Of a stretch of 24,000 nucleotides of DNA, positions 962-20,269 are shown piece after piece (the first letter of the stretch is position 1; every line of letters starts with the position of its first letter). A program made the translations under genes and the position numbers. This DNA comes from Heliomicrobium undosum (GTDB lineage Bacteria > Bacillota > Desulfitobacteriia > Heliobacteriales > Heliobacteriaceae): NCBI RefSeq assembly GCF_009877425.1, contig NZ_WXEY01000002.1:52960-76959 (forward strand), in the 5' to 3' direction. The notes under the pieces are model-generated. The model did not search any database. It was not told the DNA's origin and was given only the letters and a program-made list of their open reading frames with translations.

Positions 962-1773
962 GCCCTATCCGGCTGGTGGCCATGGACCTGGACGGCACAC
1001 TCCTTGACGAGAAGCGACGCATACCCGAACCGGTTACCCGGCGGATCGCCGAGCTTCGGAGCAAGGGCGTCATCTTTACCGTGGCGACGGGACGGATCTA
1101 CCCTTCGGCGTTGCCCTATGCCAAGCAACTGGAATTGCAGGCGCCGGTGATCACCTGCAACGGCGCCATGATCCGCCACCCCGCAGACGGCCTCATCATC
1201 TGCCACCGGACAGTGGAGGCGAAACAGGCCCTAGCGGTGCTGCAATTTTTGAAAGAAAAAAACAGTGACGCCCTGCGCTATTCCTTTCACGGCGACGAGG
1301 TGTATACTGACACGCCGCATGAGTACACAACCAGCTATGAGCGTGGACTTGGCCTTTCTTTCACTTTTGTCGATGACCTGACCGCGCACCTTGGCAAGGA
1401 GCCGGAACGCCATCCGACCATGTTTGTCCTGATGACGGATCCGGCGACCACACCGGCGTTGACGCAAGAAATCTTGGCGCACCTCAACGGCGCCGTCACC
1501 ATCACCAATTCCCACGACTACTTCATCGAAATCCTTCATCCTGAGGCGTCAAAAGGGGCGGCGCTGGCCCAACTGGCTGCGTCGTTCTCAATCGACCGGA
1601 GTGAAGTGCTTGCCATCGGCGACAACCAGAACGATCTGAGCATGATCCGTTGGGCCGGCCAGGGCGTTTTTGTGGCGAACGCGCCCAAGGCACTGCATCA
1701 CGAGGCCGATTATGTCACCTCCGCTCGCAACTCTATGGGCGTATTGGAGGCCTTGAACCGCTTTTTCCCCTAA
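958..1773 (+). CDS. Cof-type HAD-IIB family hydrolase (sugar-phosphatase-like)
   Basis: HAD motif I is present in IRLVAMDLDGTLLD, and motif IV in AIGDNQNDLSMIRWAG..VANA, with the cap region between them. Start is taken at ATG 958 (ATGA overlap with the upstream ORF); ATG 946 is an alternative. The 856 start in the ORF track is unlikely. Confidence 0.85.
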   Translation: MSPIRLVAMDLDGTLLDEKRRIPEPVTRRIAELRSKGVIFTVATGRIYPSALPYAKQLELQAPVITCNGAMIRHPADGLIICHRTVEAKQALAVLQFLKEKNSDALRYSFHGDEVYTDTPHEYTTSYERGLGLSFTFVDDLTAHLGKEPERHPTMFVLMTDPATTPALTQEILAHLNGAVTITNSHDYFIEILHPEASKGAALAQLAASFSIDRSEVLAIGDNQNDLSMIRWAGQGVFVANAPKALHHEADYVTSARNSMGVLEALNRFFP

Positions 1774-1798
1774 GTTTTTTCGGTAATGGATGATCTAT

Positions 1799-1934
1799 TT
1801 TTGTTCGCGTGATTGTTTACGCGTAATGAACAAGTCGTATCAGCTATATATGGTTCTTTATGCGCCAATGTCCCTGTCGGTCCTTTGTGCCTTTGTTCGC
1901 CTTTTCTAAGAGGATTTGACAATCGATTTGTCGA
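1799..1934. promoter_or_regulatory. Iterated TTGTTCGC-like motifs upstream of the parM-like gene (candidate centromere-like or operator array)
   Basis: TTTGTTCGC occurs at 1799-1807 and again at 1892-1900. Related copies are TTGTTTACGCG (1813-1823), inverted TGAACAA (1827-1833) and TTTGTCG (1927-1933). The near-palindrome GACAATCGATTTGTC (1918-1932) contains AATCGATT and overlaps a TTGACA hexamer (1916-1921). AGGATTTGA is repeated at 1911-1919 and 1961-1969. Confidence 0.3.
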
Positions 1935-1975
1935 AAGAAACGCTAAAGTACATGTACCGGAGGATTTGAAGCGCA

Positions 1976-3085
1976 ATGAATATGCATGCGGCCCGAGTAC
2001 GACAGTTGCCGGGATTTGAACCGGGCGAGGGAAAGAATCTGACCGTAGGGCTCGACATCGGTTTCGGCTATGTCAAGGTCGTTGCCGGAAACGGCCGCTG
2101 GGCGCTTTTTCCCAGCATCGTCGGCGAAGGCCGGGAACTGCACATCCTGTCCGGCTTTGGCTCCAACGATCCCATGGACAACCTTGTCGTTGACGTGGAC
2201 GGACGGCGCTATTTTGTGGGCAATCTCGCCCTGCGCGAGACGGAAGCGGAACTCGACATCGACCCCGACAAGATCTTCAACATTGATTTTGAAGTGCTCG
2301 TCTACACGGCGTTGGCCCTGGTCAGTGACAAGCCTGATCAGGATGTAAACATCTACCTTGGTCTGCCGATCAACTTTTACCGTACCCAGAAAGCGCGCTT
2401 TGAGGACAAGCTCCGCGCCCACCAGATGTCCCGCTTCGTCAAAATCCTGGGACAGGACGTGCGGCTGATCCGCATCCGCAACTTCGAGATTTTCCCCCAG
2501 GCCGGGGGCGCCATCTTCAACCAAATCCTCGACTTCCGCTCCGAGGTCCGCACACCCCGGCTCGCCCGAGGCAAGATCGGCATCATCGACGGGGGAACGA
2601 AGACAACCGACTGCATCTACATGGAAGACCTGAAGTTCGTCGACCAGCGCAGCTATTCAGTCAATGATGGCGGCACCCACAAGATTCTTATGGATATTCG
2701 GGACTTTTTGATGAAAAACTTTGATCATTACTATCCCCGTCTCGCTGAAGTCGACCAGATGCTCCGGGAACGGAAGGTGGAGGTCAAAGGGAAGGTCTAT
2801 GATCTCTCCTCGGTGATCGACGCGTCGGCCTCCCGTGTGGCGAGAAAAATCGTCCGGGAGATCGCGGCGAAATGGCCGAACCACATGGAATTCCGGGCCA
2901 TGATCCTCGTCGGCGGCGGCGGCTATGTGATGCATCCCTTCCTAAAGGAGACCTTCCCCGATATCCTCCTCGTCCAGGACGAGTTTGAGGGTGAAGCGGT
3001 GGCTGGCGATTGGAACGTCATCCAGTTCGCCAATGCGCTCGGCTTCTTAAAACTGGCCGTCATGCGCTACGGAGAAAAGAAATGA
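1976..3085 (+). CDS. ParM/StbA-family actin-like ATPase (Alp-type bacterial actin)
   Basis: All the actin-fold nucleotide-binding motifs are present: phosphate-1 GLDIGFGYVKVV, connect GLPINFY, PQAGGA, phosphate-2 GIIDGGTKTTD, adenosine ILVGGGG, and C-terminal FANALGF. GGAGG sits at 1959-1963 upstream of ATG 1976 (ATG 1982 is an alternative start). Confidence 0.8.
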   Translation: MNMHAARVRQLPGFEPGEGKNLTVGLDIGFGYVKVVAGNGRWALFPSIVGEGRELHILSGFGSNDPMDNLVVDVDGRRYFVGNLALRETEAELDIDPDKIFNIDFEVLVYTALALVSDKPDQDVNIYLGLPINFYRTQKARFEDKLRAHQMSRFVKILGQDVRLIRIRNFEIFPQAGGAIFNQILDFRSEVRTPRLARGKIGIIDGGTKTTDCIYMEDLKFVDQRSYSVNDGGTHKILMDIRDFLMKNFDHYYPRLAEVDQMLRERKVEVKGKVYDLSSVIDASASRVARKIVREIAAKWPNHMEFRAMILVGGGGYVMHPFLKETFPDILLVQDEFEGEAVAGDWNVIQFANALGFLKLAVMRYGEKK

Positions 3086-3438
3086 GGCATTTCCGCATCG
3101 ACCTTCGATTGGAAGAAGGCAATCCCCGGGAGGCCCAACTCATCTGGTGGCTTGATCAGTTGAAGGACCCCGCTGCCGTCATCCGGCAGGTTCTGCTCGG
3201 CAACGGCGTTCCCCCTTGGGTCGCTCAGCCGTACCCGGCCATTTTCACGCCCCAGCCTGCGACCCCGTCCACCCTGCTGACCTCGTCGATAAAGGGGAGC
3301 CAGAATGGCGTGTTCGTGGAGAATGAGGAGGAGGACGCCGAGTCGCTACTCGTGGGGCTGTCCGAACTGGATGAGGCGAATGAAGAGGAACTGGATCCTG
3401 AAACAATAAAAAAGGGACTCCAAAACGTATTCAGTTAA
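3082..3438 (+). CDS. Small protein with a ribbon-helix-helix-like N-terminus and acidic C-terminal tail; candidate ParR-like adaptor
   Basis: ATG 3082 overlaps the parM-like stop TGA 3083-3085 (ATGA), with GGAG 7 nt upstream. The N-terminus MRHFRIDLRLEEGNPREAQLIWWLDQLKDPAAVIRQVLLGN has a strand-helix-helix pattern. A Pro-rich linker follows, then the acidic tail ENEEEDAESLLVGLSELDEANEEELDPE. The position downstream of the actin gene matches parM-parR order. Confidence 0.6.
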   Translation: MRHFRIDLRLEEGNPREAQLIWWLDQLKDPAAVIRQVLLGNGVPPWVAQPYPAIFTPQPATPSTLLTSSIKGSQNGVFVENEEEDAESLLVGLSELDEANEEELDPETIKKGLQNVFS

Positions 3439-3450
3439 AAAGGAGATACC

Positions 3451-5418
3451 ATGAGCATAGCACAGGAACCTAACGGCAAGGCAAGCGCCATTGCCAACGG
3501 CAATCCCAGCACGGCTGGCAACGGTCAAGGCAATGCCGGCGCTGGTGGCAAGGGGAGAGGCGGCGCGAATGCCCACGCTGACGGTAACGGCAAGGGGAAG
3601 GCCAGCGCCAAAGCCGTGCCGACTCCCATCGCCGTAGCGAACGGCGACGCCACGCCTGCCCCCGCAGTAGTTGCAAACGGCAACGCTAAGGCGCCCGTGA
3701 GCCGTCCGAAAAAGAACGGCTACCGTCCCCGCCGCGGCAAGACAAAACCGAAGCCCAAGTCGACCCTGCCGACAGTGAGCGTCATCCCCCTCGGCGGCGT
3801 TGGCGAAGTGGGCAAGAACATGCTCGTCATCGAGTATGGCGACGACATCATCGTCATTGACTCGGGCGTCAAGTTTCCCGGCGAAGAACTGCTGGGCATC
3901 GACCTGGTCATCCCCGATATCACCTATCTCGTCCAAAACGCGGACAAGGTGCGGGGGATCTTCCTCACCCATGGCCACGAAGACCACATCGGCGGTCTGC
4001 CCTTCACGCTTAAGCAAATCCAGGTGCCCGTCTACGGGACCCGGCTGACTCTGGGCCTCGTCAAAAACAAACTGACCGAACACGGCCTGATCCGCGACGC
4101 CAAGCTCCATGAGATCACCGCCGACGATGTGGTCAACGTGGGCGCGTTCCAGGTGGAGTTCTTCCGCGTCAACCACTCCATCCCTGACGGCATCGGCATC
4201 GCCGTCCGCACTCCGGCGGGGTTGATCGTCCACTCGGGCGACTTCAAGCTTGACCAGACGCCGGTCGACGATAAGGTCCTCGAATTCAGCAAACTTGCCC
4301 GTTACGGCGATGAGGGCGTCATGCTCTTCATCTGCGACTCCACCAATGTGGAGCGGCCGGGCTACACCCCGTCGGAACGGACCGTCGGCGACACCTTCCG
4401 CTCTGTCTTCGCCAAGACGGACAGCCGCATCATCATCGCCACCTTCGCCTCCAACGTTCACCGCATCCAGCAGGTGATCGACACGGCGGCCGAGTTCAAC
4501 CGCAAGGTGGCTGTCGTGGGCCGCAGCATGGTGACCGTAGTCGACGTGTCCCAGCAGCTTGGCTACCTGAACATCCCGAAAGGCATGCTGATTGAGGCCG
4601 AGGAGATCGACCGCCTCCCCGACAACCAGGTCACCATCATCACCACCGGCTCCCAGGGTGAGCCGATGGCGGCGCTGACCCGCATGGCCACCAACAACCA
4701 CCGCCAGGTGGCGATCCGCCAGGGCGACACGGTGATCATCTCGGCCACGCCGATCCCGGGCAACGAAAAACTCGTCTCCCGGACCATCGACAACCTCTTC
4801 CGCATCGGCGCCGACGTGGTCTACAAGGAAGTGGCCAATGTTCACGTCTCCGGCCACGCCGCCCAGCAGGAGATTAAGCTCATGCTCAACTTCCTGCGCC
4901 CCAAATACGTCATCCCCTTCCACGGCGAGTACCGGCACCAGGCCACCTTCGCCAAGCTGGGGCAGACGATGGGCATCCCTGACGAGCATATCCTGCGCGT
5001 TAACATCGGTGAACGCTACGAAATGAACGAGGAAATGGTCCAAATGACCGGCACTGTCGAGGCCGGCAGCGTCATGGTCGACGGTATCGGCGTCGGCGAC
5101 GTGGGCAATATCGTCCTGCGCGACCGTCACCACCTGGCCCAGGACGGCGTCGTCATCGCTGTCGTCACCATCGACAAGGAAAACGGCAACGTCCTTGCCG
5201 GACCGGACCTCGTCTCCCGCGGCTTCGTCTTCGTCCGCGAGGCCGGCGACATGCTCGGCGAAGCCAAGTCCCGCGTTAAGGATGCATTGACCGGCCGCAA
5301 CACGGGCACGACGGAGTGGTCGGTGCTGAAGAACCTGATCCGGGATACGCTGAATGAGTTCTTCTACCAGAAGACGAAGCGGCGGCCGATTGTGTTGCCG
5401 ATTATCATGGAAATTTAA
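3451..5418 (+). CDS. rnj: Ribonuclease J (beta-CASP metallo-beta-lactamase RNase) with a ~107-aa low-complexity N-terminal extension
   Basis: The conserved core starts at VSVIPLGGVGEVGKNMLVIEYGDDIIVIDSG. It carries the MBL motif HGHEDHIGG, beta-CASP blocks (GDFK.D, SGHA) and the C-terminal domain. AAAGGAGA lies 5 nt upstream of ATG 3451. Total length is 655 aa, versus about 555 aa for typical RNase J as I recall. Confidence 0.92.
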   Translation: MSIAQEPNGKASAIANGNPSTAGNGQGNAGAGGKGRGGANAHADGNGKGKASAKAVPTPIAVANGDATPAPAVVANGNAKAPVSRPKKNGYRPRRGKTKPKPKSTLPTVSVIPLGGVGEVGKNMLVIEYGDDIIVIDSGVKFPGEELLGIDLVIPDITYLVQNADKVRGIFLTHGHEDHIGGLPFTLKQIQVPVYGTRLTLGLVKNKLTEHGLIRDAKLHEITADDVVNVGAFQVEFFRVNHSIPDGIGIAVRTPAGLIVHSGDFKLDQTPVDDKVLEFSKLARYGDEGVMLFICDSTNVERPGYTPSERTVGDTFRSVFAKTDSRIIIATFASNVHRIQQVIDTAAEFNRKVAVVGRSMVTVVDVSQQLGYLNIPKGMLIEAEEIDRLPDNQVTIITTGSQGEPMAALTRMATNNHRQVAIRQGDTVIISATPIPGNEKLVSRTIDNLFRIGADVVYKEVANVHVSGHAAQQEIKLMLNFLRPKYVIPFHGEYRHQATFAKLGQTMGIPDEHILRVNIGERYEMNEEMVQMTGTVEAGSVMVDGIGVGDVGNIVLRDRHHLAQDGVVIAVVTIDKENGNVLAGPDLVSRGFVFVREAGDMLGEAKSRVKDALTGRNTGTTEWSVLKNLIRDTLNEFFYQKTKRRPIVLPIIMEI

Positions 5419-5431
5419 TTAGAGCGAAAAA

Positions 5432-5471
5432 GCCTTCGTTAGCTTGGATAAAGCAACGAGGGCGTTTTTTT
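5432..5471 (+). terminator. Rho-independent terminator of rnj
   Basis: Stem GCCTTCGTT (5432-5440) pairs with AACGAGGGC (5455-5463), including one G-U pair, and is followed by T7 (5465-5471). Confidence 0.75.
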
Positions 5472-5528
5472 GAGGATCACCCTATTAAGTGTATCGCTAA
5501 ATGCTATGGAGACAGACCTTACAATGCC

Positions 5529-5561
5529 TTTTTCGTCATAGAAAAAGCAATTCCTGTCCTG
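5529..5561 (+). repeat. Copy 1 of a 33-nt intergenic repeat (hairpin plus AAAAGCAATTCCTGTC core)
   Basis: TTTTTCGTCATAGAAAAAGCAATTCCTGTCCTG matches 10978-11010 at 27/33 positions, including an identical 16-mer. It contains the hairpin CTTTTTC-gtcata-GAAAAAG. Confidence 0.5.
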
Positions 5562-20165: not shown

Positions 20166-20269
20166 AATAAAGACATACTAAATGCCCATTTTTCGCGCTT
20201 AAAAGCAGGAAATCAGAAGTGCGGGTCGAAATAGTGTCACCGAATTGTTACGTAAGGAGTGCATTATTG

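Follow-up and report, generated by a model that had tools for sequence, protein, structure and literature searches.

Why should an actin gene of the ParM type, coupled to a gene for a small partner protein, lie among housekeeping genes on the chromosome of a heliobacterium? The question is raised by a stretch of 24,000 nucleotides from Heliomicrobium undosum (contig NZ_WXEY01000002.1, positions 52,960 to 76,959; this whole stretch is called the window below, and positions are counted from its first letter), in which the pair directly precedes rnj, the gene for RNase J. A first-pass annotation had offered two answers, a domesticated cytoskeletal module or the remnant of an integrated element. 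The answer that we consider probable is that the pair is a chromosomal, vertically inherited, Heliobacteriaceae-specific module of the ParMR type, a filament protein with its dedicated adaptor, co-transcribed with rnj. That this module was fixed in the ancestor of these heliobacteria, and that it works like ParMR, are the best-supported readings. The evidence comprises the fold family and nucleotide motifs of the actin, the coupling of the two genes, their synteny, the purifying selection acting on them and the modular build of the partner. The features of the three-gene unit are the following.

1976..3085, + strand: ParM/Alp-type actin-fold ATPase, 369 amino acids (aa), called from Pfam, motifs, an AlphaFold 2 (AF2) model and the ratio of nonsynonymous to synonymous substitution rates (dN/dS)
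3082..3225, + strand: N-domain of the partner (aa 1–48) with a ribbon-helix-helix (RHH)-like pattern, an amphipathic beta-strand and then two helices, called from conservation
3226..3357, + strand: variable linker of the partner (about aa 49–92), rich in P, S and T, unalignable between lineages, of varying length and with a predicted local distance difference test (pLDDT) score below 50
3358..3438, + strand: acidic C-terminus of the partner with an amphipathic end helix (LSELDEANEEELDPETIKKGLQNVFS), then the stop codon, called from conservation and selection
3451..5418, + strand: rnj (RNase J, 655 aa), third gene of the unit, called from TIGR00649 (652 bits against a cut-off of 400) and Pfam domains
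5432..5471, + strand: hairpin with U-tract, likely terminator of the actin-partner-rnj unit (-26.2 kcal/mol, z = -3.15)

The actin gene runs on the + strand from an ATG at 1976 to a TGA at 3083–3085, and the gene of its partner, on the same strand, from an ATG at 3082 to a TAA at 3436–3438. Start and stop overlap in the ATGA at 3082–3085, and the open reading frames (ORFs), with the 118-aa product of the second, are those of the first-pass annotation. The ATG of rnj, at 3451, follows the stop of the small ORF after 12 nt and is preceded by the ribosome-binding site AAAGGAG. In the H. undosum genome, the actin is GTO91_02300, already named 'ParM/StbA family protein' by RefSeq, and GTO91_02305 matches the small protein at 100% identity. 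The actin gene is preceded by the C-terminus of guaB (IMPDH, 2e-51), a conserved, unannotated ORF of 150 codons and a Cof-type HAD hydrolase, so that the flanks first named (guaB, a HAD hydrolase and RNase J) are borne out by domain matches. The GC content of the pair is 0.57, within the 0.50–0.64 of its neighbours, in keeping with the earlier remark on native composition. As had also been stated, no integrase, replication or phage gene was found among the genes of the 24-kb window; the neighbourhood is chromosomal and conserved.

The assignment of the 369-aa protein to the ParM/Alp type is firm. It is matched by Pfam ALP_N (PF17989) at 2.4e-32 (112.6 bits against a gathering threshold of 26.3), by MreB-like_C at 2.2e-14 (54.5 bits against 27.8) and by Alp7A_like_C at 5.8e-5 (23.4 bits against 22), and PHROG 691, 'partition protein', matches it at 4e-54. 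Its scores fall below the cut-offs of the NCBIfam ParM equivalog NF010498 (70.7 against 417), of PRTRC system protein D (TIGR03739; 74.7 against 214.8) and of FcmB (NF052678; 34.4 bits against 300), and the protein is therefore of the ParM/Alp type but outside those families. The best phmmer matches in the PDB were pCBH ParM (1.7e-26) and Dh-cParM1 (1.3e-15), followed by pSK41 ParM, CorM and Ta0583. When the AF2 model (pLDDT 80.5, predicted template modelling score 0.84) was compared with the PDB by Foldseek, ranks 1–27 were all ParM/Alp-type actins (the best matches being pCBH ParM, Dh-cParM1, pSK41 ParM, Ta0583, Alp12, BtParM, CorM, Alp7A and R1 ParM, with BeeR also within this range), and MamK, PilM, MreB and Hsp70/DnaK ranked under them. 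The sequence search and the structural ranking thus agree on a ParM/Alp protein, as first proposed, and not on MreB, Hsp70 or a sugar kinase.

The nucleotide-binding motifs of the protein are DIGFGYVK (27–34), PQ (174–175), IDGGTKTTD (204–212) and GGGG (313–316). In an alignment with distant relatives, the phosphate 1, phosphate 2 and adenosine motifs are intact, and D27, G29, K34, D205, G207, K209, T210 and G313–315 are invariant with respect to relatives of 25–30% identity. Two additions are peculiar to the heliobacterial clade: some 22 aa at the N-terminus, which include a conserved QLPG motif, and an insert at ~337–349. The dN/dS of the actin gene is 0.02–0.03, which equals that of the rnj core, the HAD gene being higher at 0.10. 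In our reading the protein would bind ATP and polymerise, as an actin-fold member of the ParM/Alp group.

The small ORF represents a genuine gene, because its overlap with the actin gene is conserved in five heliobacterial lineages and both of its end modules are under purifying selection; it is built as an adaptor would be, of two constrained modules and a free tether. The alignment of five orthologues gives the N-domain consensus MRHFRIDLxLEEGNPxEAxLIWWLDQLKDPxxxIRxVLLGxGxPPW, with 23 of the first 46 residues invariant in the five lineages. Along the stretch F4-R5-I6-D7-L8-R9-L10, the hydrophobic positions F4, I6, L8 and L10 are conserved and the polar R5, D7 and R9 vary. The C-terminal consensus is L..L...EE..DPE(T/I)(I/V)K(K/E)GL..(V/A)F(G/S), in which L96, D105, P106, E107, K110, G112, L113 and F117 are invariant. 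Pairwise dN/dS is 0.11–0.23 for the N-domain, 0.5–1.4 for the linker and 0.05–0.10 for the C-terminus (the last within Heliomicrobium). The AF2 monomer, with a pLDDT of 52, has helices at 15–27, 30–38 and 106–117, and its N-terminal strand region is unstructured.

Of the RHH-like N-terminus and acidic tail attributed to the partner at first, the tail proved to be conserved, and the residue pattern of the N-domain fits an RHH domain, which by that pattern it may be; in the poor monomer model this domain has two helices. The protein is also an orphan. A profile search run exhaustively over 1.84 billion representatives found it in three heliobacterial clusters only, plus one low-complexity artefact; its profile hidden Markov model had no homologue among the ORFs of 88 related loci, and hhalign gave no significant match to the cParR1 family or to the partner of an Anaerolineae contig (L008, described below). 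In the mechanism that we propose, this translationally coupled protein would be the dedicated adaptor of the actin. Its N-domain, probably dimeric and RHH-like, would bind the cargo, most likely DNA, the disordered linker would serve as a tether, and the acidic C-terminus with its end helix would dock on the actin filament in the way that ParR contacts ParM through its C-terminal helix.

Co-transcription of the pair with rnj, raised as a possibility by the first-pass annotation, is supported, because the intergenic gaps are at most 52 nt, no terminator occurs before the hairpin at 5432–5471 and the gene order is conserved. Specifically, a search of the + strand from 1773 to 5418 gave no terminator-like site; the gap between partner and rnj is at most 52 nt, and the start-stop overlap between actin and partner is kept, in all five lineages with a readable junction. 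Since the hairpin is flanked by an A-tract, it is likely to act in both directions. The three genes would be transcribed from a conserved sigma-H-like promoter, described below, and their transcription would stop at this hairpin after rnj.

The order actin-partner-rnj was found in H. undosum, H. modesticaldum (HM1_2411/2412), H. gestii, a Heliobacteriaceae metagenome-assembled genome (MAG) and one further assembly, that is, in five of the six lineages of the family that were found; the contig of the sixth ends inside the actin gene, and its upstream neighbourhood matches the others. The parM-parR order, the coupling and the housekeeping setting are conserved family-wide, and the pair directly precedes rnj in five heliobacterial lineages. 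A neighbourhood of cob genes, guaB and the actin gene is shared by H. undosum, H. modesticaldum, H. gestii, one MAG and assembly L088, and the short contig of assembly L004 has only NfeD/Band7 upstream. The outer flanks vary (guaB is directly upstream in the MAG, NfeD/Band7 in two assemblies) and the genes after rnj differ among species, while the trio is constant and no flank carries mobile-element genes. Both ORFs are intact in every lineage, and their position is stable while the actins diverge to 70% identity. Outside the family, rnj was near none of the 79 loci of related actins (25–32% identity, among the matches listed) and in none of the five Desulfitobacteriaceae cParM1 loci. The matches listed from a genome collection were mostly distant relatives. 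Among plasmids and phages, the closest relatives of the actin reach no more than 27% identity, and pattern-limited scans of metagenome and viral contig collections gave no close relatives.

Only one block of DNA upstream of the actin gene is conserved in all five aligned heliobacterial lineages, and it resembles a promoter. The regulatory features are the following.

1909..1938, + strand: candidate sigma-H-type operon promoter, AGAGGATTT-N12-GTCGAAAGA, called from cross-lineage conservation and a consensus match
1948..1957, palindromic, no strand assigned: perfect 10-bp palindrome GTACATGTAC, possible operator, between the promoter-like block and the ribosome-binding site
1911–1935 (+), 5555–5532 (-), 11004–10981 (-) and 20207–20230 (+): sites of the bipartite motif, mostly ...GTCGAAA

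The conserved block (AGGATTT-N11/12-GTCGAAA) fits the sigma-H consensus RNAGGAWWW / RNNGAATWW (PMC8510167) except at two specified -10 positions (T to A and W to G). Four matches to the pattern AGGAWWW-N11/12-RNNGAA lie in the window, where 0.29 would be expected, and all four sites are intergenic. They precede, among others, the actin operon, a LysM-NlpC/P60 gene and GAPDH, and the site before the LysM-NlpC/P60 gene is conserved in H. gestii (L087, about 11601). The comparable lytE gene of B. subtilis has a sigma-H promoter. The bipartite motif is probably the promoter class of an alternative, sigma-H-like factor, and a sigma-H promoter of the actin operon is offered here as a lead. The palindrome, expected 0.17 times per window at up to one mismatch, is approximately kept in H. 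modesticaldum and H. gestii and not in the two distant lineages, so faint a trace that an operator is at most possible. One of the four motif copies lies on the - strand within 5419–5555, just after the stop of an Lrp/AsnC gene and some 60–100 nt before the terminator shared with rnj. This copy could drive a short non-coding transcript, which has no Rfam match; nor did Rfam match anywhere else in the window.

Two candidates for a centromere were rejected. Upstream of the actin gene, the triple occurrence of GGATTTGA at a 50-bp spacing turned out to be the promoter-like -35 element, which is conserved, and the ribosome-binding region and a coding copy, which are not. The AACGGCAA repeats near the 5' end of rnj encode N-G-K in frame, and two lineages lack them. 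Between 1700 and 3500, repeat families were not above chance pairs.

How does the pair compare with known ParM systems? The best match of the actin is the ParMRC system of the C. botulinum plasmid pCBH (6ixw/6izr; phmmer 1.7e-26, Foldseek 1.5e-21), which has the same order of an actin and then a small adaptor. Its ParR (125 aa; layout read from the pCLK homologue) resembles the heliobacterial partner in having a strand, two helices, a linker, an acidic stretch and an amphipathic end helix, and it binds its parC in vitro (PMC6599009). However, the actins are only 24–26% identical, pCBH ParMRC is plasmid-borne with a 130-bp ParR-binding parC upstream, and its adaptor lies ~475 nt downstream, does not overlap and has no detectable homology to the heliobacterial one. 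The heliobacterial locus, in turn, is chromosomal, has no parC-like repeats and continues into rnj.

Dh-cParMR-1 of D. hafniense (8x1i; Ali et al. 2025, PMC12270681) is also chromosomal and highly conserved within a family of spore-forming Bacillota; its actin has 369 aa, and the actin gene shares 4 nt, start on stop, with the gene of an orphan partner downstream. Polymerisation of Dh-cParM1 was shown experimentally (PMC12270681). Partners of the Dh-cParR1 type are laid out in the same way, the N-domain being followed by a linker that varies and by an acidic 'EE-D-P/E' tail that contains a hydrophobic helix; in the family, which was retrieved with a partial sequence rebuilt from a PDB alignment, they have 141–260 residues, overlap or abut the actin gene and carry the C-terminal motif 'VIGEEEDxxVL.F', which is duplicated in D. 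hafniense. The actins, however, are 25% identical and the partners unalignable (hhalign probability below 1%). Because of this identity, no closer than that to plasmid ParMs, Dh-cParM1 is not an orthologue. The Desulfitobacteriaceae loci also differ in lying beside spore genes, in having sigma-A type TATACAAT promoters and in lacking rnj. The Dh-cParM1 family was seen in Desulfitobacterium, Desulfosporosinus, Dehalobacter, Syntrophobotulus and Peptococcaceae MAGs (L090 7001–8610; L091 7001–8649; L092–L094), with a gerA operon beside one of these loci and DUF421/DUF4363 beside three.

CorMR of Anabaena sp. PCC 7120 (9rmi) is likewise chromosomal, lineage-restricted and ParMR-derived, with an N-terminal extension on its actin. 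As a relative it is remote, with a phmmer match of 7e-5 and 34 bits against the 300 required by the NCBIfam FcmB model, which we take to correspond to CorM. As a precedent for a function outside plasmids, CorR recruits filaments to the membrane via an amphipathic helix under the control of Min (bioRxiv 10.1101/2025.06.27.661541). The archetypal type II partition system, ParMRC of plasmid R1, again has an actin ATPase followed by an adaptor, which contacts the filament by its C-terminal helix; structure 4a62 appears among the Foldseek matches. Identity to R1 ParM in the structural alignment is only 14%, and parC of R1 has ten iterons around the promoter. A similar tail, ending in 'EEDPELAARLDAQLKEFFGEE', is found in the partner encoded on the Anaerolineae contig L008. 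The adaptor tails are strikingly alike in being acidic with a DP-capped helix, but profile-profile comparisons gave no significant score, and we read the likeness as architectural analogy without claiming homology.

On this comparison, the module fits the class of chromosome-encoded ParMR systems (PMC12270681), a ParM-type actin and an adjacent putative ParR being present on the chromosome and conserved among relatives, and it is not orthologous to Dh-cParM1 or CorM. It was not filed as a ParMRC partition system, which would include a centromere and a mobile replicon, neither of which was found. The premise that plasmids and phages are essentially the only carriers of such cassettes, on which the first-pass annotation had relied, is out of date, since chromosomal ParMRs are known from Desulfitobacterium (cParM; PMC12270681) and Anabaena (CorMR; bioRxiv 10.1101/2025.06.27.661541); neither heliobacteria nor RNase J is mentioned in these two reports, and nothing was found in the literature on the locus tags. 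The kind of system is thus already known, the actin is already named by RefSeq, and the heliobacterial pair is a further case. Chromosomal ParM systems were described only in 2024–2025, and a cellular role is known for CorMR alone. To these the heliobacterial pair adds a system that is vertical within one family, constrained like an essential RNase and equipped with an orphan adaptor in a fixed three-gene unit. Since H. modesticaldum is genetically tractable and plasmid-free, the locus is a practical one for asking what chromosomal ParMs do. The adaptor layout shared with Desulfitobacteriaceae, in which a free linker joins the N-domain to an acidic 'EE-DP' tail with a helix, could also become a search rule for ParR-like partners missed by sequence.

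Several observations weigh against the ParMR-type module that we favour. The partner shows no sequence or profile similarity to RHH or ParR families (Pfam, NCBIfam, PHROG, PDB profile search and hhalign), its poor monomer model has no fold match, and its N-domain, judged from sequence, has no net positive charge. The end helix, IKKGLQNVFG, also looks like helices that target proteins to the membrane, that of MinD for one. No parC-like repeat array turned up in searches for repeats and tandem repeats, whether upstream, downstream or elsewhere in the window, and in H. gestii the distance from the HAD gene to the actin gene is only ~80 nt. The sigma-H call relies on a consensus match with an imperfect -10 element, and because one of the four sites precedes the housekeeping gene for GAPDH, the sigma-factor assignment is a lead only.

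Some of these points would suit a repurposed cytoskeleton with a cargo other than DNA, like CorMR, in which the actin polymerises, the partner tethers it to the membrane or another structure and no centromere is needed. We regard this as unlikely without being far-fetched. Besides the missing parC-like repeats and a partner that has no detectable signature of a DNA-binding family and no basic N-domain, it can call on the clade-specific N-terminal extension and insert of the actin, on the pairing of actin-group relatives with bactofilin in other Bacillota and on CorMR itself, a membrane-associated shape system that acts via an amphipathic helix of its adaptor (bioRxiv 10.1101/2025.06.27.661541). 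On the other hand, the strand and two-helix pattern of the N-domain is typical of RHH adaptors, its outward polar positions vary by lineage, as co-evolving DNA contacts would, a membrane anchor would be expected to be longer and less polar than the end helix (with its Q, N and K), and a centromere could lie elsewhere on the chromosome. A decaying, functionless remnant of a partition cassette, left by an integrated plasmid or prophage, is so improbable that it can nearly be set aside. ParM/Alp cassettes are best known on plasmids and phages, PHROG 691 matches strongly and the nearest solved relative is plasmid-borne, but both reading frames are uninterrupted throughout the lineages, the chromosomal position has stayed the same while the actins diverged to 70% identity, and the 24 kb contain no mobile genes, are native in composition and yield no close mobile-element relative. 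Because the actin dN/dS is ~0.02, the context native, the mobile relatives at most 27% identical and rnj absent from all 79 related loci, the remnant proposed at first is disfavoured as very unlikely, and the linkage to rnj is specific to heliobacteria.

This linkage invites a further explanation, namely that the pair is coupled in function to RNase J and that filament and adaptor would position or scaffold the enzyme, organising RNA decay in space. The acidic tail of the adaptor may, for example, bind a basic N-terminal extension of RNase J. Codons 1–108 of rnj (3451–3774) encode a low-complexity extension of G, N, A and K, ending in the basic patch RPKKNGYRPRRGKTKPKPK. The extension is also present at L085 8386–8700 and L087 8365–8830, where the frame is open, and its N-terminus, MSI(A/T)QEPNGK, is conserved with the ribosome-binding site in three species; its length ranges from ~10 to 150 aa, and distant lineages keep only the basic patch. 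The order actin-partner-rnj is fixed in all five lineages that extend far enough while both outer flanks vary, the intergenic gaps are very short, and the heliobacterial RNase J extension is unusual, with its basic patch conserved. Against a coupling of this kind, rnj is near none of the related actin loci, nor near the cParM1 loci, the operon membership alone may reflect a cassette inserted behind a promoter, and the long low-complexity part is missing in two distant lineages despite a conserved adaptor tail; we would give the idea only a small probability. A broader conjecture, in which the pair is an ex-plasmid cytoskeleton of the transition phase or of sporulation, expressed from the sigma-H-type promoter and organising a chromosomal or RNA function together with RNase J, strikes us as distinctly doubtful. 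Such a cytoskeleton might tether RNase J via the basic extension, or it might shift part of the chromosome while the forespore forms. If it were true, the fixed place in the rnj operon would reflect a functional partnership and not an accident of insertion.

A few minor observations were made around these subjects. The GenBank starts of rnj in H. modesticaldum and H. gestii lie 230–440 nt later than the start of the extended frame; they look mis-annotated, because that frame is open and the N-terminus and the ribosome-binding site are conserved. The ORF between guaB and the HAD gene (509–961, + strand, 150 codons) has no Pfam match, was absent from the first-pass annotation and has counterparts among the gene calls of H. 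modesticaldum, H. gestii and L088 (117–150 aa). The Anaerolineae contig L008 (1–5154) carries excisionase-type helix-turn-helix genes, a ParM/Alp gene (29% identical), a gene for a 108-aa partner that resembles RHH proteins and has an acidic tail, and one for a P-loop ATPase that weakly matches FtsK. It resembles a ParMR cassette of a mobile element and was used for comparing architectures.

In MAGs of Bacillota, Symbiobacteriaceae and Fermentithermobacillaceae, a related ParM/Alp gene (27–30% identical) is directly followed by a bactofilin-like gene, so that genes for two cytoskeletal polymers stand side by side. The bactofilin-like genes were called by Pfam PF04519 in L037, L077 and L063, and by similarity to L037 in L033 and L080.

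L033 7077–7625: bactofilin-like gene
L037 2042–2581: bactofilin-like gene
L063 7057–7620: bactofilin-like gene
L077 7057–7740: bactofilin-like gene
L080 7102–7653: bactofilin-like gene

For many of the Desulfobacterales relatives of the actin (L015, L021–L023, L032, L034–L035, L040 and others), a gene of ~253 aa lies just downstream. We take it to be LarB-like, by a Pfam AIRC match (PF00731) in the copy of L015 and by similarity in the others.

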